Shown in pieces: positions 2,135-25,889 of a stretch of DNA of 64,000 nt. The position numbers and the translations under genes were made by a program. The stretch's first letter is position 1; each line of letters opens with the position of its first letter. The notes under the pieces are model-generated. The model worked only from the letters and a program-made list of their open reading frames with translations. It made no database searches and was not told the origin of the DNA. The DNA comes from a virus. Where the stretch lies: IMG/VR virus record IMGVR_UViG_3300032050_000036, positions 49,499 through 113,498 of that record; one strand, 5' to 3'.

Positions 2135-3499
2135 ATGGCAAAAATAATTATTTTTGATTTAGATGGGGTTTTAATAGATAGCAAAGATATTCACTATAAC
2201 GCACTAAATAAAGCATTATGTGATATTGATGCTAAATATAAAATATCTTTTGAGGATCATATTAAAATATATAATGGTTTGCCTACTAAAGAAAAACTAA
2301 AAATACTTTCAGAAAAAACTAATTTAGATAAAAGTACATTTGATATTATTAATAAAAATAAACAAAGTTATACATTCGACATGCTTAACGATGTTTCTGA
2401 AGATATAGAATTAATAGAGTTATTTAAATTAATTAAAAATAATAATATAAAAATATGTGTTGCTAGTAATAGTATAAGAAAAACAGTTGAACTAATTTTA
2501 ACTAAGTTAAATATTATTGATCTAGTAGATTATATTGTTAGTAATGAAGATGTAAAAAATCCAAAACCATCCCCCGAGATGTATTGGAAGTGCATGTCAG
2601 AATTCAATACAATACCAAAAGATGTTGTTATATTTGAAGATAGCATAATTGGTAAAATTGCCGTTCTAGATAGTGGTGCCAGCCTTGTTGAGATTAAAGA
2701 TAGAAAAGATCTAACCTTAGAAAAAATAAATAATGCTATAAATATTTTAAAATATTCCAAACATTCTGTCTTAAATAAAAAAATAAATATTGTAATACCA
2801 ATGGCTGGAAAAGGTAGCAGATTTTTAGATGCAGGTTTTTCATTTCCAAAACCATTAATAGATATAAATGGTATGCCAATGATAGAGTTAGTTGTAAATA
2901 ATATTGCACTAGAAGGAAACTATATATTTATAGTAAGAAAAGATCATTATGAAAAATATAATTTGCTTGAAATGTTAACAAGAATTGTTCCCGATTGCAA
3001 AATTATAACTGTTGACGAGGAGCAAAGCGGGGCAGCATCAACCTGCTTATATGCAAAAAATTACATAAATACAGAGGATCCGTTATTTATTATAAATTCT
3101 GATCAATATATAGATTGGAATCCTAAAGAATTTTTATACAATAATGTAATAAAAAATTTAGACGGATCAATATTGTTGTTTAAGTCTACTCATCCAAAAT
3201 GGTCTTATGCAAAATTAGATGAATTCGGCATGGTAGTAGAAGTTGCCGAAAAGGTAGTTATAAGTGACAATGCTACTGTCGGTGGATATTACTGGGGAAG
3301 TGGACACAATTTTGTTAAATACGCAGAACAAATGATAGAAAAAAATATTCGTGTAAATAATGAATTTTATGTGTGTCCAGTATACAATGAGGCAATAAAA
3401 GATAACAAAAAAATTGGATCATATTTTATTAATAAAATGTATGGATTGGGCACACCAGAAGATTTAGAAAAGTTTATGAGGTTTTATAATAATGATTAA
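2135..3499 (+). CDS. HAD phosphatase fused to sugar-phosphate nucleotidyltransferase-like domain
   Basis: FDLDGV, KPSP, FEDS (HAD); IPMAGKGSRF...PKPLI, GLGTPEDL (NTase). Confidence 0.88.
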   Translation: MAKIIIFDLDGVLIDSKDIHYNALNKALCDIDAKYKISFEDHIKIYNGLPTKEKLKILSEKTNLDKSTFDIINKNKQSYTFDMLNDVSEDIELIELFKLIKNNNIKICVASNSIRKTVELILTKLNIIDLVDYIVSNEDVKNPKPSPEMYWKCMSEFNTIPKDVVIFEDSIIGKIAVLDSGASLVEIKDRKDLTLEKINNAINILKYSKHSVLNKKINIVIPMAGKGSRFLDAGFSFPKPLIDINGMPMIELVVNNIALEGNYIFIVRKDHYEKYNLLEMLTRIVPDCKIITVDEEQSGAASTCLYAKNYINTEDPLFIINSDQYIDWNPKEFLYNNVIKNLDGSILLFKSTHPKWSYAKLDEFGMVVEVAEKVVISDNATVGGYYWGSGHNFVKYAEQMIEKNIRVNNEFYVCPVYNEAIKDNKKIGSYFINKMYGLGTPEDLEKFMRFYNND

Positions 3500-7990: not shown

Positions 7991-8018
7991 CCACCTGAGC
8001 ATGTGGATAAAAGGCTCA
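7991..8018 (+). ncRNA. H-type pseudoknot motif copy 1 (3' of hsp20)
   Basis: CCAC-CTGAGCAT-GTGG-ATAAAAG-GCTCA. Confidence 0.65.
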
Positions 8019-13589: not shown

Positions 13590-14669
13590 ATGAAACTTCA
13601 GTATGGCAATCAAGATCCAGATATTTATTCTTTTGAAAGTGCTTCGCTAAAGGGCTTTCCATTATTTGAAATACCTTCAGTTCATATTAAAAATCTTAAA
13701 TTCAGCAATCAACCTGAAGAAGACTATGAGTATATTTCAGGAAAGGTATTTTTAGTTCCAGCAGCAAATGATTTTTATCATGCCCTAACAGATACTATGG
13801 CCCATTATGAATCTTTAAAAACAGTTTATCCAGATTTAAAAATAATTTTTTGTTCTAATGACAATATGTACACTATAGATAGATATATTGGCATAAACAG
13901 AAAATACATGCTAGAAATTTTAAAAATTTATAATATAGAATATAAAGATATTCTTGATATAAAAAACAAAAATTATATATTTGAAGAGGTAATACATTTG
14001 CCACATAGATCGCAATGGCACCAAGACAGGATTGTTCCTTTTGAAATACAACAAAATCTAAAAAATTTTACTCACGATGAGACTTGGTCTTATAGAAAAT
14101 TTATGATAAATTCTTTAAAACAAAAATTTTATAATCAAATAATTGATAAAGAACCTAAAAAAATATATGCATCACGTATGCCATATAAGACTAATCCTAT
14201 AGATTATTCAAAATTATCTGACGAAGATCAAAGATATTGGAATTTTAGATCACAAGAAATAAATAGACAATATAAAGATGAAGAAAAACTTATAGATTAT
14301 TTTTTAAATAAAGGCTATGAAGTGTTAAATTTTGGAAACATGTCATTAATAGATCAAATAAGTGAATGCTATTATTCGACTGAACTTGCTGGAATCAATG
14401 GATCTAATATTTTTAATTTTATATGGGCAAAGCCAGAAACAAGAACACACATTATTTATGTAACAAATGCATGGAATTATGGTTTTTGGAAATACTTTGA
14501 TTATTGCAAATTGAATTACAAGCAAATAGGATTAAAAGAAGTTCTTAAGGTTGAGTATTTAAATAGAGTTGATACTGGAAAAGCAGTCATTCATCCTCCA
14601 ATAGATTTTGATAAATTATATTTTGCAGACCATAAGGTTTTAATTGATGAACTTGAGAGCCTCCTGTAG
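13590..14669 (+). CDS. Glycosyltransferase family 61 (DUF563)-like
   Basis: FYH, KIYASR, MSLIDQI, GSN..N.IW. Confidence 0.8.
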   Translation: MKLQYGNQDPDIYSFESASLKGFPLFEIPSVHIKNLKFSNQPEEDYEYISGKVFLVPAANDFYHALTDTMAHYESLKTVYPDLKIIFCSNDNMYTIDRYIGINRKYMLEILKIYNIEYKDILDIKNKNYIFEEVIHLPHRSQWHQDRIVPFEIQQNLKNFTHDETWSYRKFMINSLKQKFYNQIIDKEPKKIYASRMPYKTNPIDYSKLSDEDQRYWNFRSQEINRQYKDEEKLIDYFLNKGYEVLNFGNMSLIDQISECYYSTELAGINGSNIFNFIWAKPETRTHIIYVTNAWNYGFWKYFDYCKLNYKQIGLKEVLKVEYLNRVDTGKAVIHPPIDFDKLYFADHKVLIDELESLL

Positions 14670-14729
14670 GATTTGAACCTACGACAATCCGCTTACAAGG
14701 CGGGTACTCTACCACTGAGTTAAGGAGGC
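14658..14729 (-). tRNA. tRNA-Thr(TGT)
   Basis: Cloverleaf GCCTCCT/AGGAGGC, anticodon loop CTTGTAA, GGTTCAAATCC. Confidence 0.92.
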
Positions 14730-14730
14730 G

Positions 14731-14802
14731 TAGCACTAACGGGAATCGAACCCGTCTTTCCGCCGTGAAAGGGCGATGTCCTAACCGATAGACGATAGTG
14801 CC
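14731..14802 (-). tRNA. tRNA-Glu(TTC)
   Basis: GGCACTA/TAGTGCT, loop CTTTCAC, GGTTCGATTCC. Confidence 0.92.
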
Positions 14803-14806
14803 AATA

Positions 14807-15145
14807 TTATATTTTTAATGATCTCATATATGTCCTATGCCTATGGCAGTTAGCACATACTATTTCACATTTTGGTATTTCTTCTAACAATTGTTTCATT
14901 GTACCATTTCTTACAATAGCATTTATGTTAGCCTTTTTAATACCACGCACATGATCGAAATCTAATTGATGTGGAGGGTATGATATTTCACATTCTAAGC
15001 ATATTGAATTATTTAGTTTATAGTTTAAAACATATAGGTTTCTTTCATTTCTTTTATCTTTAGATCTTTTTATAGTTAAAGATTTGTTTCTTTCGTACCA
15101 GGCTTTTTTGGCAGCCTTTTGTTGTAAACTATCCTTATATGGCAT
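14807..15145 (-). CDS. HNH endonuclease within tRNA cluster
   Basis: CLEC, LDFDH, CANCH. Confidence 0.88.
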   Translation of the reverse strand: MPYKDSLQQKAAKKAWYERNKSLTIKRSKDKRNERNLYVLNYKLNNSICLECEISYPPHQLDFDHVRGIKKANINAIVRNGTMKQLLEEIPKCEIVCANCHRHRTYMRSLKI

Positions 15146-15160
15146 ACTTCTCCCTTCAAG

Positions 15161-15234
15161 CGATGCGTACGAGACTTGAACTCGTGACCTCCACCGTGAC
15201 AGGGTGGCGTTCTAACCAACTGAACTAACGCACC
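15161..15234 (-). tRNA. tRNA-Asp(GTC)
   Basis: GGTGCGT/ACGCATC, loop CTGTCAC. Confidence 0.92.
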
Positions 15235-15238
15235 TTCG

Positions 15239-15311
15239 CTGGTCTGGCAGGTCTCGATCCTGCGACATCTCGATTAACAGTCGAGTGTTCTACCAACTGA
15301 ACTACAGACCA
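15239..15311 (-). tRNA. tRNA-Asn(GTT)
   Basis: TGGTCTG/CAGACCA, loop CTGTTAA; T-loop ATCGAGA. Confidence 0.88.
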
Positions 15312-15326
15312 ATTATTATATTGTAG

Positions 15327-15399
15327 CACCCTCGATTGGATTCGAACCAACGACAAACGGATTAGAAGTCCGCTACTCTATCCACTGAGTTACAAGGGT
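15327..15399 (-). tRNA. tRNA-Arg(TCT)
   Basis: ACCCTTG/CGAGGGT, loop CTTCTAA. Confidence 0.92.
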
Positions 15400-15406
15400 A
15401 TATTTG

Positions 15407-15480
15407 TAGAGCAGGTAGGACTTGAACCTACGATAGCCGAATTATGAGTTCGGGGCCTTGACCAACTTGGCTACTGCTCC
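15407..15480 (-). tRNA. tRNA with CAT anticodon (elongator Met or Ile2)
   Basis: GGAGCAG/CTGCTCT, loop CTCATAA; lacks initiator hallmarks. Confidence 0.88.
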
Positions 15481-16431: not shown

Positions 16432-17305
16432 TTTGCCAAAACTCCTAATAAAAATCCAACAAGGGCAGAGAGTATTCCAACGGTCCAATAATAAGTTTTT
16501 GTTAGATATCCCAAAACTATGTCTTTAACAACATCTTTTGGCACCTCTATTTGATAGCCTTCATAATCTGGATCGTCAAACTTATATGATTTCACTTATG
16601 CTCCTTCATGTGTCTATTAAGTGTATCATGGGCAAATATGCCTGAGCGCACTTCGATTTCTTTTTTACAAATATCGCATATTACAAATTTACCTGGCATA
16701 TGTCCATTATATCTAAAAGTCGGTAGTTTGTAAAGTTCGGCGGAAAATAGAAGTAATAAACCTATCTATGACCTAGACGGTCAATATGGTTTAGTAACTA
16801 TTCTATCCGACTATTCCAAAGAATAAGATAGCCCCTATAATAACGATAGCAGACAATAAAATCTTAATTTTTGTTTCTTTAGGCCATTCTTCTGTATTCA
16901 TTCCCATGGTTTCTCCTATCCAGCATGCATCCAAGTAAAATGTTTTTTACATACATCTATGACAATACCAGTATCTTTTTCTGGCTGAGTAAACTCTGCT
17001 TTATTGTTGCAATAAAAACATTTCATCTATTTATTATAACATATTGGACAATTTAATATATTGGGAGTTCCTGATGTTGCGTAAAATGTTACGCCACAAT
17101 TATGGCAGAGAACCTTAATCTTTAATTTATTCATCATACTCTCCCAACTCTTTTAATATTTGTTCTGCCAAATCTTTGGCGATCTTGTCTTTATGTTTGC
17201 CCTTTATGTAGTCATAAATAATATCAGAAATAATATCAACCTTAGATTCTTTAGATAACATGGTTTCTCCATTATACGGGTATTTTGCGAGGGTATAATG
17301 AGGCC

Positions 17306-17623
17306 ATGGACCCTACTATCCTATATATAGTATATCACCAAGGATATAATGCCATTAAGGTGGGTATAGGGGATATTGCTGGTAAAAGGTTTAAAGCCCA
17401 TAGGACCAAAGGGTGGGAACTGGTTTGTTATTGGTATTTTCAAAATAGGCGGGATGCAAAAAGAGTCGAATCTATAGTACTACAAACCCTAAGAGAGAGA
17501 TATGGACATTATCTGGATAAGGGGGATATGCCATATGGGGGATATACGGAGACATTTAATGCCAAGAAAATAACCAAGAGAAGGTTAATTGGTTTGGTCA
17601 ATAGGGCTATAAGGGGATCTTGA
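17306..17623 (+). CDS. GIY-YIG/T5orf172-like nuclease
   Basis: ILYIV...IKVGI...R...E...GYTETF; TATAAT 6 nt before ATG. Confidence 0.65.
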   Translation: MDPTILYIVYHQGYNAIKVGIGDIAGKRFKAHRTKGWELVCYWYFQNRRDAKRVESIVLQTLRERYGHYLDKGDMPYGGYTETFNAKKITKRRLIGLVNRAIRGS

Positions 17624-17646
17624 TATCCCCGCTTTTTTATACCCTA

Positions 17647-17754
17647 TTATCCCCAAGATCTCATTACAGAAATTAATACAAGAAGATAGGCCACCCATCC
17701 TGTGATAAATCCGTATATGAATATTGCTGGTTTGCTAATTAAAAGTTTCTTCAT
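17647..17754 (-). CDS. Small membrane peptide (35 aa)
   Basis: MKKLLISKPAIFIYGFITGWVAYLLVL; TATAAT 6 nt before ATG. Confidence 0.5.
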   Translation of the reverse strand: MKKLLISKPAIFIYGFITGWVAYLLVLISVMRSWG

Positions 17755-17774
17755 TTAACCATTATACATGGAAG

Positions 17775-17795
17775 TTATCCACAGGTTTATCCACA
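17775..17795 (+). promoter_or_regulatory. Tandem DnaA boxes
   Basis: TTATCCACA at 17775 and 17787. Confidence 0.7.
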
Positions 17796-17833
17796 GAAAT
17801 ATCTTACTGATTATATTATTGGATAGGGTTAAA

Positions 17834-17859
17834 GTGGAGTAAAGTGGAGGATAGTGGAG
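17834..17859 (+). promoter_or_regulatory. MraZ-type binding repeat
   Basis: GTGGAG x3 with 4-nt spacers. Confidence 0.55.
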
Positions 17860-18132
17860 CATGGAGCGCTTTTTAAGGCGGGGATCGTAATGTCAAACCA
17901 TAAACCCTATATCCCAAACCATATATCCTTCAAACCCTTATACCATATATGCCCCATATCTGTCAAACCATGTATAAAAGGTTTGGCATTATACATTCAA
18001 AACCATGGTTTGTCAAGTATCTTCGTAAAGGAATTTGAATGAAAAATTGCCAAAAGTCTGGGAAAATTCTGATAATTTCGTAATATGTTTTATTATGCCA
18101 AAAAATGTTTTAAAACCAGGAAATATGGTTTG

Positions 18133-18327: not shown

Positions 18328-18621
18328 ATATTAATTGTAACACTCTTTATACCGCCCAAACTTTCAGCGATTTTTTGGACGGCGTTCGTAATGTCTTTTT
18401 ATCCTGTGTTTTGCGCTGGGCGCCCCAAATTTGGCGGGGGATAAAAAGATACCGTAATACTACCTATATAAGTATACATAGATACAATGGTTTGACAAAC
18501 AAAATATATTATGCTACATGGTTTGGGAAAAATATGGTTTGATCGTAATCTGGGAAAAATGGTTTGGTATCGTAATGGTTTGTTAACAAAGAAAAATGCA
18601 CCGACCCGTTTTCAGGGCTTT

Positions 18622-18897: not shown

Positions 18898-19081
18898 TGT
18901 ATTTCTCCTCTTTGTGGTATTGTGCGCTTTCTGCGATAGTGATAAGTCTGTTGTAGGAAACTGTTGGTGCGATTACTGCTAAATACTCGCCTACCTGCTC
19001 AATGTCAAGGCGAAGGTCAGATACGATAGCGGAAATACGCATGGCAACTTTCTCCTCGTCAGTTAGTCTGTGTTTTCTCAT
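18869..19081 (-). CDS. Hypothetical protein
   Basis: AAGGAG RBS before MRKHRL. Confidence 0.7.
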   Translation of the reverse strand: MRKHRLTDEEKVAMRISAIVSDLRLDIEQVGEYLAVIAPTVSYNRLITIAESAQYHKEEKYNEQHQYRLF

Positions 19082-19179
19082 AGTTCTCCTTATAGTCATT
19101 GTATCAAATAAGATGTGGGGGCGCAAGTAGAAGAAAGGTGCTACCTACGCCCCCTTATTACGGAGGGGACCCAACCCTC

Positions 19180-19536
19180 CTAGGATGTGACCGTCGTCAC
19201 AAGACTGTGATAGTTAATAAAATCTTGTATAGTATGTATACCAGTGTCATCAGTTACAGTCTTATTAATTAAATCAATTAGCACGGGATGGTCCATGAAT
19301 CCCAGGTCGTTAGGATTGCAGGCATAAATTCCATACCCCGTCTCGTCCATAATATTATCCTTGATTAGATAACTAACAGCCATACGTACATAGTATGACT
19401 CATCACCTAGGCGTGGTGCTGCATGCTGCAGGGCTGCTGCCAGGTCTGTATACATAGAGTATTCACCCCAATGGCTGTATAAGGCCACTGCCTGGTCTTC
19501 TGACTGCTTAAAAACGAATGTACAACGTGCTCCCAT
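19180..19536 (-). CDS. Hypothetical early protein
   Basis: GAAAGGA RBS; TTGACA-17-TACACT promoter at 19569-19597; LYSHWG. Confidence 0.75.
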   Translation of the reverse strand: MGARCTFVFKQSEDQAVALYSHWGEYSMYTDLAAALQHAAPRLGDESYYVRMAVSYLIKDNIMDETGYGIYACNPNDLGFMDHPVLIDLINKTVTDDTGIHTIQDFINYHSLVTTVTS

Positions 19537-19735
19537 GGTGGGTCCTTTCGATAGTTGGGTTTTCTTCTAGTGTATCAAATTTTAGGTCTAATGTCAATTG
19601 CTCGTACATCATGCCTCCTCAAAAGCAACTACAGATAGATCTGAAAGTACTTCGCTCCAGATCTCTCCCTCTCCAGCCTCTGATTCAACCACAAATTTCA
19701 TATAGGTCCCAGAAGGCTCGTGTATTACTTCAATA

Positions 19736-20032
19736 TTATACTGTGGCATTGTCTTCCCTTTCTGCTATAGCAAATGATAATTGATAAGTTAATTGATAAA
19801 CTGCAGCAAGAGCGTCACATTGTCCCTCCCAGTACTTACGTTCCATAGATTCTAAAGCGTCGCTATAGTCATTGGCTTCCTCTATACGCTGCGCTTCTTC
19901 TAGTTCTAGTTGAGCCTCATACATCCAGTTCTTCATCTCACCATGAATGATATCCAAGGCTGAAATATTTTCATCTACCATATGCTGCAGGTGCTCATCT
20001 AGATTGTAATCTGGATTAAAGTTTGTTTGCAT
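19736..20032 (-). CDS. Hypothetical protein
   Basis: GGAG RBS before MQTNF. Confidence 0.65.
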   Translation of the reverse strand: MQTNFNPDYNLDEHLQHMVDENISALDIIHGEMKNWMYEAQLELEEAQRIEEANDYSDALESMERKYWEGQCDALAAVYQLTYQLSFAIAEREDNATV

Positions 20033-20222
20033 GCTCTTCTCCAATCTGTATAAAATGGCGGGTAGCAATAGCCTGCCCACCCAACCAGTTAAATTCAAAA
20101 TCTAACTCTAGGAACTCTTTAGAATTCATATCTAAATCTTCCATTTGTTTTTCTATCTCTTCTTTGTCTTGCTCAATAGAAATGAGATGTGCTTTCATGT
20201 ATTCAATTAGGTAATTAGACAT
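20016..20222 (-). CDS. Hypothetical protein
   Basis: Coupled ORF. Confidence 0.65.
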   Translation of the reverse strand: MSNYLIEYMKAHLISIEQDKEEIEKQMEDLDMNSKEFLELDFEFNWLGGQAIATRHFIQIGEEHANKL

Positions 20223-20955
20223 CGACTTGGTCCATTCTATAGTTGGGTATATATTCCTCAGTTAAGTATACTTTATGGATGTCGCAATCTGCAACTGCTT
20301 CTAAGTCTGCCTCGCCTAGATAGTGACAAGAATCACAGATTTCTCCACAATCGTTATCACAGTATTCTAATGTATTAATTTCATCACAATCTCTACATTT
20401 GTTTTCATAGTTAGAATCTTGAATGATAACTCCAGCAAGATATTCTGTCTCACCACCCCAACCTGTTTCTTCCTCATAAGACAAGGTAATGTTTAGGTTT
20501 GGATAATCAAAAGATAGTCTTTGTATAGCAGGATGTGGCGGAGACCAAGCGGTATTAAACTTATACTGTAAAGAGGTTTCGTCTTCTTCGTATAACTCAG
20601 TCTCAGGATAATCTTCTCCGTCACGAACTGATACATCCCACTTAGTTCCCCACTCACGAACATTAAAGTCATACCAGCATTTACCCTTAAACTGTAATTG
20701 CTCTGCCATGGGCAGGGTATGGTCAGGTTGCTTCATATAATCTTCATCACTAATACCTGCTTGTATATGATTATAGATATTATGGAAAGCAAATATAGGG
20801 TTAGAGTATGAAGTCTCAGTTAACTCCATTTGTCTTGTTTCCATATTAAACTGGTCATGCATTTTAGTAAATGGTTGGTTAAGTTGTGCCTTAACCTTAG
20901 CAATGTCTTGTTCATTGCCTTCGATAGTTAGATAGTTGTAACACCAATTTGGCAT
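20215..20955 (-). CDS. DUF1281/Api92-like ferredoxin-domain protein
   Basis: MPNWCYN, WGTKWD, FNTAWSPP; TTGACA-17-TAGAAT promoter. Confidence 0.8.
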   Translation of the reverse strand: MPNWCYNYLTIEGNEQDIAKVKAQLNQPFTKMHDQFNMETRQMELTETSYSNPIFAFHNIYNHIQAGISDEDYMKQPDHTLPMAEQLQFKGKCWYDFNVREWGTKWDVSVRDGEDYPETELYEEDETSLQYKFNTAWSPPHPAIQRLSFDYPNLNITLSYEEETGWGGETEYLAGVIIQDSNYENKCRDCDEINTLEYCDNDCGEICDSCHYLGEADLEAVADCDIHKVYLTEEYIPNYRMDQVDV

Positions 20956-21170
20956 TATGGGTCCTTTCTGTGGGTTCTTGTATTATTCTAGCAAATTAGG
21001 TAGGGTATGTCAAACACGTCCCTCTGCCAATAGTCCTAGTAAGAAGTCCTCTAGATCTCTAAGTACTGATACATCTTCCTCTGCAAACTTAGTATCCTTA
21101 ATATGGTGATGGATAGAATAATTTAATATCATAGCCATATTTTCTACCTGCTCTGTTGTATATCCTAGCA

Positions 21171-21401
21171 TTATGCATTCTCCTTTTCCATAAGAATATT
21201 ATAGGCGGCAAGGCTGGTTATGTCAATATTTATTTCTCTACCAGGGTATTTATTAATTAGGAAATTAACTGCATCTCCTGCTGATTTAAAGTCACTATAG
21301 TTTTCTGAATATCCATATCCTTGTATAGTTATTTCCCAGCAATCAATCCCACCAGGTGAGACAGAGTATTCCATTTCATATATTTGTGCATTTAGGGTCA
21401 T
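21171..21401 (-). CDS. Hypothetical protein
   Basis: TTGATT-17-TATGAT promoter immediately upstream. Confidence 0.65.
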   Translation of the reverse strand: MTLNAQIYEMEYSVSPGGIDCWEITIQGYGYSENYSDFKSAGDAVNFLINKYPGREINIDITSLAAYNILMEKENA

Positions 21402-21545
21402 GGTTTAATCATATCAAAATCTAGGGGAAAAATCAAGTTCTACGTAATAAAAAAAATTCATGACATTTTTAGTCGGTTACGTAATAAAAGTTTTTGATGA
21501 TATTTTTAGTCGGCCACTTTTTTGATCTTTTGTCAAATAAAAAAT

Positions 21546-21573
21546 TGAGCAGTTTATACTCATGCTCAGGAGT
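21546..21573 (-). ncRNA. H-type pseudoknot motif copy 2
   Basis: ACTC-CTGAGCAT-GAGT-ATAAAC-TGCTCA. Confidence 0.7.
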
Positions 21574-21582
21574 TGAATTAGA

Positions 21583-22590
21583 TTAAACTAATTCTAAAGT
21601 GTTGCGAACAACATTTAGCAAACGATTTTTTTCTGCTGTGATAGCAGGGTCAAAACCACTTGAACCCATTAGGATTGATTCAGTAAGACCACGCTTACCA
21701 CCACGATACCAATCGATTCTTTCTGTGAGTGCGTTCCAAGCACCCCAAGCAGTATTGGCAATCATGCCATTGAATTCGCCTGTGTAAATATCATTGATTA
21801 AATCAACTTTATTTGTCCACTTAGAAAGTGCGCCTTTCTTAGTTTCATCAGGCTTAGGATACGCAGCCAAAACAATATCATTGAATTGTTGCGCTGTGAT
21901 TTCTTTTTCAATCATGAGTTGCGCCATGATAGAAAATTCGTCCATGTAAGCATTAGCAACAGCAAGAGCCTCACGAGCCTGTTGAACTTTACCCTCAGCA
22001 GATTGTGTGTGACGAATCTTGAATGATTGCTTTACGCCATTGTTTTTCTTAGTGCGACCAAGAGCAACAGCGAGAGTGTTAGCGCATACAACACGAACAG
22101 GTGTCACGCTTGCTTGAATAGCAACAGAACCATCGTGTGATGTATTAACAAGAAGATAAGTCTTAACCTTATCCGCTACACCATTAGGGTCAAGAACAGT
22201 CTCACGCTCAAGAGCAAGAGAACCGAAAACAACACGACCACTACGCAATGAGCCAGCAGTCTCCCAACGACCTCCGCCATCAAGAATTGCATCACCAAAA
22301 GTGAATAGTTCTTCATTTTGTAGTGGGACATAGCGTTCACCAACAACGCCTAAGACATCAACTTGATTTGCGGTGAATGGATTATCACGCACAACATATT
22401 GATAAGATTTATCAGATGTAAGAGTAGATGGGATTTCTACATCTTCAAGACGAACATTCCAACCATCAAGGTTAGCGAGTTCCAACATTTTTTCAGTAGT
22501 GACTTCCTCCTGAAAAACAGTTCCTAAACCATGCCAAGCAGGTTCACGGAATGAAGCGAAAGAATTAGCAGATTCTAATTCATGAGCCAT
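21583..22590 (-). CDS. DUF932 (TIGR03299-like) phage/plasmid protein
   Basis: MAHE..PAWHGLG, ETAGSL, NTSHDGS, PVRVVCANTL; GAAAGGA RBS. Confidence 0.88.
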   Translation of the reverse strand: MAHELESANSFASFREPAWHGLGTVFQEEVTTEKMLELANLDGWNVRLEDVEIPSTLTSDKSYQYVVRDNPFTANQVDVLGVVGERYVPLQNEELFTFGDAILDGGGRWETAGSLRSGRVVFGSLALERETVLDPNGVADKVKTYLLVNTSHDGSVAIQASVTPVRVVCANTLAVALGRTKKNNGVKQSFKIRHTQSAEGKVQQAREALAVANAYMDEFSIMAQLMIEKEITAQQFNDIVLAAYPKPDETKKGALSKWTNKVDLINDIYTGEFNGMIANTAWGAWNALTERIDWYRGGKRGLTESILMGSSGFDPAITAEKNRLLNVVRNTLELV

Positions 22591-22621
22591 ATTTATTTCC
22601 TTTCTATTTTTAGTTATTCTT

Positions 22622-22643
22622 ATCTTAGCACAACGGGCTGACA
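22622..22643 (-). promoter_or_regulatory. PafBC/RecA-NDp-type promoter
   Basis: TGTCAG-cccgttgtgc-TAAGAT. Confidence 0.65.
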
Positions 22644-22733
22644 AAAGCAAATCCTGGAATTTGGGCGTTTTGATCGTAACTACGTAAAACGGACATTTTA
22701 GGACAAAACGGGCCGACCACTTTTTTGAGGAAG

Positions 22734-22763
22734 TGAGCAGTTTACGTGGACGTGCTCAGGTCC
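22734..22763 (-). ncRNA. H-type pseudoknot motif copy 3
   Basis: GGAC-CTGAGCAC-GTCC-ACGTAAAC-TGCTCA. Confidence 0.7.
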
Positions 22764-22843
22764 CTCACGGTCTCTTTGAAAGAAAGGATGAAAGAAGAGA
22801 TCCGTGCACATTGCGTGGCCTTTCATGAACCACGCAAATTTAT

Positions 22844-23254
22844 TTAGATGTCGATGTTGTCGACGCTTGCAGAAACATGTGTTACATGATTCATATCATA
22901 TGTGATTGCTTCAAAATCAATATCATTAATTATTGATTCTGCGTCTTCACCTGCAGGAACTTCAATTGTTAAATAGTAAGTTACGGTAACCTCTGCTTCA
23001 ACTTCCTTGGTAAGTTCGAATGCACCAATCTCAGAAAGTTCAACAGCCTGCTCTTCAGTGATGTTGCCATTCTCTAGATTCTCCATGGTCCATTCATGTA
23101 GACCAGTTGACATTGCATTTAGTGCAGCAGCAGTGCTAAAGTCACGCTGTACAACACGAGCATGAGACTCTTCTACAGTCTTTACTCGCTCCTCTAGTTG
23201 CTTGATTGTATTACGAAGATATTCCTCCGTAGCATTAATTACATTAGTTTCCAT
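22844..23254 (-). CDS. Hypothetical early protein
   Basis: GAAAGGA RBS. Confidence 0.7.
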   Translation of the reverse strand: METNVINATEEYLRNTIKQLEERVKTVEESHARVVQRDFSTAAALNAMSTGLHEWTMENLENGNITEEQAVELSEIGAFELTKEVEAEVTVTYYLTIEVPAGEDAESIINDIDFEAITYDMNHVTHVSASVDNIDI

Positions 23255-23516
23255 CTGTGATATCCTTTCCTAGACTATCAAATTCGTTTATTTCATTAAT
23301 CATAGCATCCATTTCACTTTCTGTCAATAAAACATTAGTGACCAATGTTGCTGTAAGAGATGAGAGTAGCGCAGAATATTTAAATAACATCTGTGCGAAA
23401 TCATTATCTGACATTTCATTTCTTGCGTGTAGTAGTTGTGAAGCAATAGCCATTGACATATCGTCATGGACTGCGTCTTTAGTTGCTTCTTGTATTGCTA
23501 TAGCGGTTGCTATCAT
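23244..23516 (-). CDS. Hypothetical early protein
   Basis: GAAAGGA RBS before MIATA. Confidence 0.7.
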   Translation of the reverse strand: MIATAIAIQEATKDAVHDDMSMAIASQLLHARNEMSDNDFAQMLFKYSALLSSLTATLVTNVLLTESEMDAMINEINEFDSLGKDITDGN

Positions 23517-23542
23517 CTTAGTTTCCTTTCTTTCTAATACTA

Positions 23543-23564
23543 AGTTTAGCATTGGGTTCTGACA
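23543..23564 (-). promoter_or_regulatory. PafBC/RecA-NDp-type promoter
   Basis: TGTCAG-aacccaatgc-TAAACT; TTGACA also upstream. Confidence 0.65.
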
Positions 23565-23581
23565 TTTGTCAAGTTGGAGGT

Positions 23582-23609
23582 GGGGCAGTTTTACATCATA
23601 CCCAGGATG
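23582..23609 (-). ncRNA. H-type pseudoknot motif copy 4
   Basis: CATC-CTGGGTAT-GATG-TAAAAC-TGCCC; compensatory change in stem 2. Confidence 0.7.
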
Positions 23610-23735
23610 ATCCCTCTAGGAATACCCGCAAGGACTTTCGTCACTTCATTTGTTAGCGGGGCTTATCAAGAGAGAAACCTGTTGTGGCGGGGGTAATTAC
23701 GATTACACACCCGAAACCCGCCACAATTATTTAGA

Positions 23736-24158
23736 TTACAAGTATCTTGCGATAGCGTTGTAAGTAGAAGTAGAAACTACTTCCTCATCTGTCATCTTGA
23801 GAATACGAATTGCGTTCTCAATTTCATCTTTTTGCTCACGATACTGCCACTCATGAATAGACACATAGTCTTTCTTGGGTTCATCAGGTAGCGTGATAGT
23901 TCCAGCAGGTAGAGAGAAAGATACTTGGATTTCGTTATTGTATCTCTTATGAGCAGATAAGTCCTCTGCCTTAGCAATTTTATCAAGTGCTAATTTAGCG
24001 ACTTCCTTGTTCCAAGCCTTTACTGCCTTGTCGTGCTTTGCTTCGTTCGCCTCTTGTGAAGCGAAGTCTTTATTTAGTTTATCAAGTGCGCTTTCTAGTG
24101 CCTTGATAACCTTAGTTGTAGCGATTTTTACATTTATCGCTTTGCCATTTCTAGCCAT
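23736..24158 (-). CDS. Hypothetical early protein
   Basis: GAAAGGA RBS; TTGATT-17-TAGACT promoter. Confidence 0.75.
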   Translation of the reverse strand: MARNGKAINVKIATTKVIKALESALDKLNKDFASQEANEAKHDKAVKAWNKEVAKLALDKIAKAEDLSAHKRYNNEIQVSFSLPAGTITLPDEPKKDYVSIHEWQYREQKDEIENAIRILKMTDEEVVSTSTYNAIARYL

Positions 24159-24221
24159 TTATTTATCCTTTCTTAGTGGGTTGTTATTTATAGTCTAGCA
24201 TTTTTACTGCTAGAAATCAAG

Positions 24222-24251
24222 TGAGCAGTTTTAGTAGCCATGCTCAGGGCT
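24222..24251 (-). ncRNA. H-type pseudoknot motif copy 5
   Basis: AGCC-CTGAGCAT-GGCT-ACTAAAAC-TGCTCA. Confidence 0.7.
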
Positions 24252-24267
24252 TTTCCTGTATTAGGAA

Positions 24268-24435
24268 TTACTTTGCTGTCCAAGTTGTCCAGCGAGGTGA
24301 GCCATTGACATCAAGTTTTACACGAACGCTTGTTCCGTCTTGATTTGGCTTGATTTCGGTAATAACGCCTGTCACCTTTGACTTCTGTGAGGTGTAGGTG
24401 TCGCCTACCTTGTAAGTTGCTGTTGCTACTGCCAT
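24268..24435 (-). CDS. Small SH3-like early protein (paralog A1)
   Basis: AAGGAG RBS; TYKVGD..SKVTG.I; TTGACA-17-CATAAT promoter. Confidence 0.7.
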   Translation of the reverse strand: MAVATATYKVGDTYTSQKSKVTGVITEIKPNQDGTSVRVKLDVNGSPRWTTWTAK

Positions 24436-24702: not shown

Positions 24703-24924
24703 TTGCGTTTTTCCTTTCTGTTTGGGTCTTAGTATTAGTTTAGCATAAAAATACAAGAAATACAATTCGGGGAGCGTTTTGGGGGTCTTTTTAATGTGAT
24801 CTTAATTACAGGGTCGTAACTTGACAAATTGGGTTTTGCGGGCCGACCACTTTTGCGGGGGATTTATTGAGAAATAAAAAAGTAAAGTATTAACCATGCT
24901 ATGAATAAATACTCTACACGCATT

Positions 24925-25644: not shown

Positions 25645-25889
25645 TGCTCATCCCTTTCTTTCATTGATAATTCTATCATTTTTTTATTGCTTTGTCTAGT
25701 ATAAACACGCTTGCTATTTACGGCAGAGGCTGCGTTAGATCTACGCAATTCTTGAATGCGCCTTAATTCTTCTTTACTCTTCCTAAACATAATTTAATAA
25801 TATCATAAACAAACAAAAATCACAAATTTAGGGAGGTTCTACTTAATCTACGTAAAACGGACATTTGGTGCAAATTGGTCGGGCGGTTT

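Follow-up and report, generated by a model that had tools for sequence, protein, structure and literature searches.

Why would a virus display, in hairpin loops at the ends of its early transcripts, a short pyrimidine motif that complements the ribosome binding sites (RBSs) of its own early genes? The question is raised by the minus strand of a 64,000-nucleotide (nt) stretch of viral DNA, referred to below as the window, which corresponds to bases 49499–113498 of one 113,498-bp virus record, 35% GC (IMG/VR IMGVR_UViG_3300032050_000036). The final 126 nt of this record duplicate its start, as circular assembly would. Two hairpins in the window, B and T2, form conserved stem-loops in RNA at the 3′ termini of early minus-strand units. 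The loops of both carry CCUUUCU, which is the complement of the early Shine-Dalgarno (SD) sequence AGAAAGG(A) and is identical to the assumed actinobacterial 16S ribosomal RNA (rRNA) 3′ end. A preliminary description of this DNA had proposed that such hairpins give rise to small RNAs (sRNAs) that block SD-led mRNAs and leave leaderless genes immune. The analysis presented here argues, tentatively and at a little short of an even chance, that the loops work by pairing with early GAAAGG purine tracts, which would lower ribosome access.

Hairpins B and T2 and their conservation

Hairpin B belongs to a ~105-nt non-coding module on the minus strand, located 3′ of the stop codon of a 136-aa open reading frame (ORF) and composed of hairpin A, hairpin B, and an H-type pseudoknot. 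The parts of this module and the gene that precedes it are listed here by window position.

22844–23254, minus strand: 136-aa ORF of unknown function, with no Pfam domain above the curated cut-off and no PHROG match; the A-B-pseudoknot module lies in its 3′ untranslated region (3′UTR)
22811–22837, minus strand: hairpin A, with an 8–10-bp stem and the loop (UU)CAUGAAAG(G), starting 7 nt past the stop codon of the 136-aa ORF
22766–22806, minus strand: hairpin B, with an 11-bp stem, one bulge, and the 18-nt loop CUUUCAUCCUUUCUUUCA, core CUUUCAUCCUUUCUU
22734–22764, minus strand: H-type pseudoknot, with S1 GGAC/GUCC, S2 UGAGCA/UGCUCA, and conserved CCUG and AAACUG

Hairpin B is found exactly as the preliminary description had it, with its stem (CACGG-A-UCUCUU/AAGAGA-CCGUG) and 18-nt loop placed just ahead of the pseudoknot. 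The pseudoknot begins 2 nt past hairpin B, and the gaps that separate A, B, and the pseudoknot are only 2–9 nt. The 119-nt 3′UTR holding hairpin B folds with a free energy of −39.5 kcal/mol (z = −4.1 vs shuffled sequence). Within the B loop is UCCUUUCU, which corresponds to the 16S 3′ tail and is the complement of the early SD AGAAAGGA. The loop of hairpin A, which reads UUCAUGAAAGG in the window, is SD-like; neither this hairpin nor its complementarity to the B loop appears in the preliminary description.

The conservation of the module was probed using both pattern searches and protein-anchored searches of IMG/VR. A pattern specifying just the A loop and the first bases of the pseudoknot, with the B loop left free, returned 39 matches, 24 of which are sequence-distinct. 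The 15-nt B-loop core CUUUCAUCCUUUCUU is identical in all 24 distinct instances, with variation confined to the last 2–3 bases of the loop. The invariance of the A loop in the same instances is partly circular, as AUGAAAGG was fixed by the search pattern. A 16-mer search of IMG/VR gave mostly unrelated matches, and only those with the flanking stem, A loop, and pseudoknot were retained. The B loop is likewise unchanged in 8/8 loci found by the 136-aa protein alone (at least 56% identity), seven of which (L001–L007) also contain the A loop AUGAAAGG. The exception, L008 (L147 is the same contig), has a wholly different B stem and no hairpin A, and the B loop is kept.

The stems of the module vary in a manner that preserves pairing. 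Following realignment with a covariance model, compensatory changes are seen at 7/8 pairs of hairpin A, with 99% of cells paired, and at 7/10 pairs of hairpin B, giving 14 pairs for the two hairpins together. The covariation score of the module is 0.479, as compared with 0.20 for shuffled alignments (0/500 reach the observed value) and 0.06–0.15 with slid partners. Loop conservation accompanied by stem covariation had been named in advance as one check on the hairpins, and it is observed for the B module as well as for the T2 stems described below. Furthermore, in all 24 variants AUGAAAG of the A loop can form 7 bp without mismatch with CUUUCAU, which lies in the 5′ half of the B loop (−6.8 kcal/mol); both of these complementary loops are invariant, leaving no loop-loop changes to count. 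A scan with Rfam 15 at the gathering threshold identified tRNAs only. With E values up to 10 over 18900–24400, four chance-level matches were obtained, none of them on the hairpins, using models that covered 6C (RF01066) and the terminator and riboswitch families.

The second hairpin, T2, follows a different early gene at 19.1 kb, together with a smaller hairpin and the promoter of the next unit.

19180–19536, minus strand: 118-aa ORF (phrog_31860, function unknown), whose 3′UTR contains hairpin C and T2
19162–19180, minus strand: hairpin C at the stop codon of the 118-aa ORF, GGAGGG/CCCUCC, with the conserved loop UUGGGUC, which is not anti-SD
19117–19154, minus strand: terminator-like hairpin T2, with a 14-bp GC-rich stem (three of its pairs G-U) closing the loop CACCUUUCUU; downstream come ACAUCUUAUU and then an extended −10 element
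19098–19106, minus strand: extended −10 promoter TGATACAAT of the next unit, with the T2 3′ arm at the −35 position

T2 (−24.8 kcal/mol, z = −4.7) had been placed at 19118–19153; the hairpin is real and is one pair longer than claimed. Its G-U pairs exist on the minus strand only, which fits an RNA made from that strand. T2 lies between the stop codon and the next promoter, and a nearly invariant TGATAnAAT-type box is found 8–13 nt past it in all relatives. Across 37 stem variants the stem is always 12–17 bp, and 8/11 consensus pairs show compensatory changes. The loop is more variable: about 20 of the 37 variants have GUGGU(G), several have other sequences, and seven have CCUUUC. Where present, the CCUUUC motif occurs in five loop contexts (CACCUUUCUU, CAUCCUUUC, UUUCCUUUCUU, CCCCUUUCUU, and CCCUUUCU) with differing inner stems. 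The tract downstream of T2 reads ACAUCUUAUUUG in the window, where the U run is interrupted, and ACACUUUUU in relatives, where a 4-nt spacer precedes 4–8 U. T2 was not called by a simple terminator scan. It is best called a primarily terminator-like element whose loop carries the motif in one sub-lineage.

In relatives, hairpin C takes the form GAGG-UAGGGUCA-CCUC and similar. In more distant relatives of the 136-aa gene, a hairpin UAGUAG-GGGG-CUACUA holds the stop codon inside its stem.

The preliminary description had also listed a third, CU-rich loop, which does not stand.

23665–23674, minus strand: claimed CU-rich loop CUCUCUUGAU, contained in a stem and not displayed

In the minimum free energy fold this sequence pairs with AGAGGGA, with a z of only −1.9. 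In relatives the corresponding sequence forms the 3′ arm of a hairpin, GAGAGGGG/CCCCUCUC; the claimed loop was rejected.

The loop motif and the early Shine-Dalgarno class

The host is probably a freshwater actinobacterium. The closest named phages, identified via a DUF932 protein, are Streptomyces phages and other actinophages with ~54% identity, and a megablast search of the region against GenBank phages returned zero close records; dozens of IMG/VR contigs are far closer than the named phages. The actinobacterial 16S rRNA 3′ end is ...CACCUCCUUUCU-3′, and for the host of this phage the same end is assumed.

The hairpins lie in a minus-strand block of small genes (14.8–29.5 kb of the window) that contains sigma-70-like and TGTCAG-N10-TAnnnT promoters and six tRNA genes. 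The early genes of this block have AGAAAGGA as a uniform SD, while the plus-strand late and structural genes have GGAGG, AAGGAG, or GAGGUG. Genome-wide, there are 28 GAAAGG-N3-13-ATG sites, and 19 of these fall at 19.5–30.5 kb of the window. This distribution, together with the GGAGG or AAGGAG of the late genes, bears out the earlier assignment of GAAAGGA as the early SD. The genes can be described as two SD classes, the early AGAAAGGA being complementary to the final 8 nt of the 16S tail and the late GGAGG, AAGGAG, and GAGGUG to its core.

Two start regions in the block are predicted targets of the B loop.

23514–23540, minus strand: start region of the first gene of the unit ending in the A-B-pseudoknot module, GAAAGAAAGGA, an 11-nt complement of the B loop
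23252–23279, minus strand: GGAAAGGAU, in the start region of the 136-aa ORF; every relative retains it, and it is a complement of AUCCUUUC(U) in the B loop

Duplexes of the B loop with GAAAGG start regions have a mean predicted energy of −11.2 kcal/mol (best −18.7), compared with −7.3 for shuffled loops and −9.7 for the assumed 16S tail. Matches between the B loop and the early start regions are 7–12 nt long, and the observed energy is reached by 2/300 shuffles. The CCUCC core is missing from both the B loop and the T2 loop, which would leave GGAGG-led late genes unaffected. The SD survey and the duplex energies bear out two points of the preliminary description: the motif is complementary to SDs of the early class, and late genes led by GGAGG stand apart.

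The motif is rare on the sense strand. The sense strand of the 113-kb genome has five CCUUUCU heptamers in all, two of which are those of the B and T2 loops, and the genome contains ~17 strong sense-strand intergenic hairpins. Enrichment was assessed in 105 protein-anchored related loci, where CCUUUC is found inside a hairpin loop in 26/95 distinct sense contexts vs 5/193 on the antisense strand. For the remaining 19 C3U3 permutations the share in loops is 0–17%; CCCUUU, which overlaps the CCCCUUUC loops, comes second to CCUUUC. CCUUUC is the sole C3U3 permutation with a clear enrichment in sense-strand loops. Its carriers include at least four unrelated hairpin families, namely B, T2, a coding-end hairpin, and a tandem pair first seen in L053.

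L049, L055–L057, L062–L069, L083, and L085, ~3340–3365 in each: coding-end hairpin
L053:5283–5345, and L376, L356, L344, L337, L336, L324, L308, L307, L303, L295, L283, L281, and L279: tandem hairpins with (U/C)CCCUUUCU loops

The coding-end hairpin is formed by the last codons of the homologue of the 118-aa gene and has the loop UCCUUUC (for example GCAGUG-UCCUUUC-CACUGU). Its stem covaries at the expense of amino-acid changes, and the T2 loop of the phages that carry it is GUGGU or another non-CCUUUC type. The tandem pair directly precedes the pseudoknot and an extended −10 promoter. A directed search identified at least 13 further contigs in which two tandem hairpins with covarying stems precede the same pseudoknot, a third CCUUUCU often coming after it; as the motif was part of the query, only the stems and the context count as evidence.

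Several related possibilities were considered and set aside. CCUUUC loops are not a general trait of hairpins that precede the pseudoknot, being found in only 8/133 contexts. Pairing of class-I T2 loops (GUGGUGGG) with CCCACC before the start codon does not fit the distribution of these sequences. A perfect 10-nt match of the window's T2 loop to a start region at ~29528 is probably fortuitous, and the matches in G001–G003 are the loops themselves. Recognition of UCCUU by a MazF-type enzyme was dropped, since that motif is absent from the T2 and tandem loops. No promoter for an independent sRNA was found within the upstream ORF by a simple promoter scan.

The pseudoknot is itself a dispersed element, S1-CC[UGAGCA]-S1'-nUAAAC[UGCUCA], present five times in the genome and in 133 distinct contexts once related loci are counted too.

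7993–8016, plus strand: pseudoknot copy
21546–21570, minus strand: pseudoknot copy
22734–22764, minus strand: pseudoknot copy, in the module described above
~23590–23620, minus strand: pseudoknot copy
24222–24248, minus strand: pseudoknot copy

Both of its stems covary, and it is found at unit ends just 5′ of promoters, in many cases with a U-rich tract behind it; Rfam has no entry for it. Several copies are directly followed by a single-stranded tract (at 23576–23582, minus strand, in the window, and in L002, L225, L227, and L376), which reads CACCUCC, or CCUUUCU in the tandem-type phages. These tracts are additional pieces of the 16S tail, and they may be mere pyrimidine or U tracts of a terminator.

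Weighing the explanations

It is proposed that selection acts on the unpaired CCUUUC(U) of these hairpins and that the loops pair with SDs of the AGAAAGG class and thereby lower ribosome access to early mRNAs, either in cis or from a surviving 3′ fragment, and that GGAGG-led late genes would be left alone. The SD look-alike AUGAAAG of hairpin A would pair over 7 bp with the 5′ half of the B loop and could mask or pre-arrange the anti-SD half, while the adjacent pseudoknot probably ends and stabilises the transcript. The structures, their covariation, the conserved loops, the enriched motif, and the complementarity are observed; pairing in vivo, any effect on translation, and a stable 3′ fragment are inferred. 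The motif complements an early SD private to the phage and at the same time copies the 16S tail, which would be a very unlikely coincidence for an unrelated protein site; the SD/anti-SD link is therefore the robust part of the proposal. A more ambitious form of it, which should be regarded as unlikely, is that a clade of freshwater actinophages times early shut-off by RNA: accumulating decay-resistant 3′ modules showing copies of the 16S tail would compete with ribosomes for AGAAAGGA, sparing GGAGG-led and leaderless genes, with hairpin A setting the threshold.

A number of results weigh against pairing with early SDs. Most structures of the relevant kinds are without the motif, including ~30/37 T2 variants and 125/133 hairpins that precede the pseudoknot. 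When variants of the 3′ end of the B loop were compared with the RBS of the first gene, 10 lineages fit and six did not, which is not significant. Comparison of the T2 loop class with the RBS type of the gene itself (4/7 vs 2/19, with non-independent rows) also gave no significant association, being suggestive at best, and the near-complete relative G003 has no start region that is perfectly complementary to its own T2 loop. Only the 7–8-nt core is shared with the targets, and the 16S tail also fixes this core, so that pairing with targets is indistinguishable from mimicry of the tail. In addition, the A loop could occupy the B loop within one molecule, and the host, and so its 16S tail, is presumptive. 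The share of GAAAGGG among SDs is 20% in phages with CCCUUUCU loops vs 8% in those of B type, a weak trend in phylogenetically non-independent data.

The strongest competitors of SD pairing assign the loops a structural or a protein-binding role. It is conceivable, if unlikely, that the arrangement is purely architectural, with the B loop kissing the A loop and packing on the pseudoknot to give a compact 3′ end that ends transcription and blocks exonucleases, and with T2 acting as a terminator. The perfect and invariant AUGAAAG-CUUUCAU complement and the tight packing of A, B, and the pseudoknot suit this arrangement, as does the presence of UGAAAG just upstream of B in L008, which is without hairpin A; T2 likewise sits at the expected site of a terminator, with a U-rich tract in relatives. 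The A-B kiss, however, accounts for only 7/15 of the invariant loop bases, and its partners are free to covary, yet unchanged. The CCUUUC loops of T2, the coding-end hairpin, and the tandem pair have no complementary loop nearby, and it is very unlikely that an arbitrary 7-mer would match the complement of the phage's own early SD by chance. A role as protein sites is improbable as well, either as boxB/nut-like sites for a phage factor governing read-through or mRNA stability, or as decoys of the 16S tail that catch a host factor or nuclease. Hairpins that bind proteins characteristically combine a fixed loop with stems that covary freely, the tandem copies and the third, post-pseudoknot CCUUUCU of some phages resemble a multi-site sponge, and a location just 5′ of terminator-like structures suits control of termination; covariation between loop and target, moreover, was not found. 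Set against these points, no candidate RNA-binding protein is seen among the neighbouring ORFs, which have no informative domains, and one would not expect a site for an unrelated protein to coincide with the early-SD complement. The range of loop sizes (7 to 18 nt) and the varied flanks are also easier to explain by base pairing.

The remaining explanations are less probable. The loop could act as an insulator in cis, pairing with the SD of the next gene only on read-through, which would confine translation of the downstream gene to transcripts from its own promoter. This is a doubtful account: it would suit the DUF932 gene ~170 nt downstream of B, which has the SD AGAAAGGA and its own conserved promoter, but the gene after T2 has the SD AAGGAG, a poor complement of CACCUUUCUU, and the coding-end hairpin is left unexplained. 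That the CU-rich loops reflect chance composition with no selected function is very hard to credit, even in an AT-rich genome in which the third claimed loop was spurious, given that the B loop is invariant in 24 variants with covarying stems, that the enrichment is specific to one word, and that the motif is rare on the sense strand. More improbable still is a coding origin, in which GAAAGG on the plus strand serves as the RBS of a small antisense ORF, as the preliminary description had itself raised, or the AUG of the A loop starts a small peptide on the minus strand. An ATG does follow GAAAGG on the plus strand, and a 42-codon ORF traverses the module on the minus strand. The AUG directly abuts the GG, however, with a spacing from SD to AUG of only 0–1 nt, and the antisense ORF ends after seven codons in 3/24 variants. 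The sense ORF ranges from six to >35 codons and reads the B loop in three different frames, and G-U pairs are confined to the minus strand. Comparison of the 24 variants revealed no conserved reading frame through the module on either strand, and both the sense and the antisense ORF were ruled out by their shifting frames and lengths. Together, the chance and coding explanations take up only a very small part of the probability.

Related systems, neighbouring features, and implications

Comparison with known RNAs helps to place the pairing proposal. The B and T2 hairpins share two features of sRNAs with anti-SD or C-rich seed loops, having a pyrimidine loop motif on covarying hairpins and a seed complementary to RBSs. 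The closest kind is the cuckoo/CcsR family. The cuckoo RNAs of Alphaproteobacteria (CcsR/alpha-r14; PMC4615179) resemble the module in having modular hairpins with compensatory stems, an anti-SD pyrimidine loop as the only conserved sequence, and, commonly, tandem copies. The cuckoo motif, however, is CCUCCUCCC, the anti-SD core, and it is cellular, whereas the phage-encoded CCUUUCU corresponds to the extreme 3′ tail; in the phage module, an SD-like partner loop and an H-type pseudoknot accompany the hairpins, and there is no sequence homology. The 6C sRNA (RF01066; PMC6486639) is found in the presumed host phylum and likewise has C-rich loops that pair with purine-rich RBSs, repressing translation in Actinobacteria without Hfq or ProQ (PMC6486639). 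In contrast to the 3′UTR elements described here, which have U-rich loops and no Rfam match at E = 10, 6C is a stand-alone gene with CCCCCC loops and G-rich RBS targets.

Phages provide further comparisons, in which the agent may be RNA or protein. The c4 antisense RNA is excised from its transcript by RNase P. As in the proposed system, c4 of phages P1 and P7 (PMC12197685) is a phage RNA derived from the operon of its targets, with loops that pair around the RBS and block translation. It differs in that it lies upstream of its target, is excised, and pairs in a gene-specific manner, while a whole SD class would be addressed here. In logic, the proposal is also similar to T4 RegB and RegA (PMC3014915), phage devices whose targets are, collectively, the SDs or start regions of early mRNAs; RegB, a nuclease, and RegA, a repressor, are proteins, in contrast to the RNA loop proposed here. 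T2 resembles an intrinsic terminator as a GC-rich, 12–17-bp stem-loop at a unit end with a U-rich tract in most relatives. It differs in the 4-nt ACAY spacer before the U run, in the interruption of that run in the window, and in a conserved 3′ arm (CUUGCGC) and one conserved G-U pair beyond the needs of a terminator. In the lambda boxB/nut sites, too, the loop is conserved while the stem covaries, and the hairpin precedes terminators in nascent RNA, but no N-like protein or boxA is known here, and the loop of the present hairpins coincides with the anti-SD tail. The elements are set apart from these systems by the extreme 3′ tail used instead of CCUCC, the location in phage 3′UTRs, the SD-like loop and dispersed pseudoknot, and the dedicated early SD class.

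Several other features of the early block were observed. The TGTCAG-N10-TAnnnT sequence of the early promoters is kept in relatives (22616–22644, 23543–23572, and others). The DNA boxes AAAAGTGGTCGGCCCG and AATGTCCGTTTTACGTAG are repeated between pseudoknots and promoters and are also kept in relatives; they may be operator sites. The large non-coding stretches contain many CAAACCAT/GGTTTG-type repeats that resemble iterons and may mark a replication origin.

14657–15480, minus strand: tRNA cluster of six genes (Thr, Glu, Asp, Asn, Arg, Met)
17262–18132 and 18328–18621, minus strand: non-coding stretches with CAAACCAT/GGTTTG-type repeats
21399–21436, minus strand: promoter of a candidate leaderless gene (76-aa ORF), TTGATT-N17-TATGAT with TG ahead of the −10, ending 6 nt 5′ of the ATG
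21402–21582, 22651–22733, 24766–24924, and 25791–25889, minus strand: repeated boxes AAAAGTGGTCGGCCCG and AATGTCCGTTTTACGTAG

Control of translation in phages has so far mostly been attributed to proteins, such as T4 RegA and RegB, and to a few gene-specific antisense RNAs. To our knowledge, Actinobacteria lack Hfq and CsrA, and post-transcriptional control in these organisms is poorly understood. In the phage clade described here, which is common in freshwater metagenomes, genes are split into two SD classes for different parts of the 16S tail, and the sequence of the tail itself is placed in conserved loops at the ends of early transcripts. Even if another mechanism applies, the A-B-pseudoknot module represents a structured RNA that is absent from catalogues and as well conserved as a riboswitch, and the CCUUUCU motif offers a simple handle for finding more such elements. 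If the loops do pair with early SDs, they would constitute a class-wide, RNA-only translational switch in viruses of Actinobacteria.

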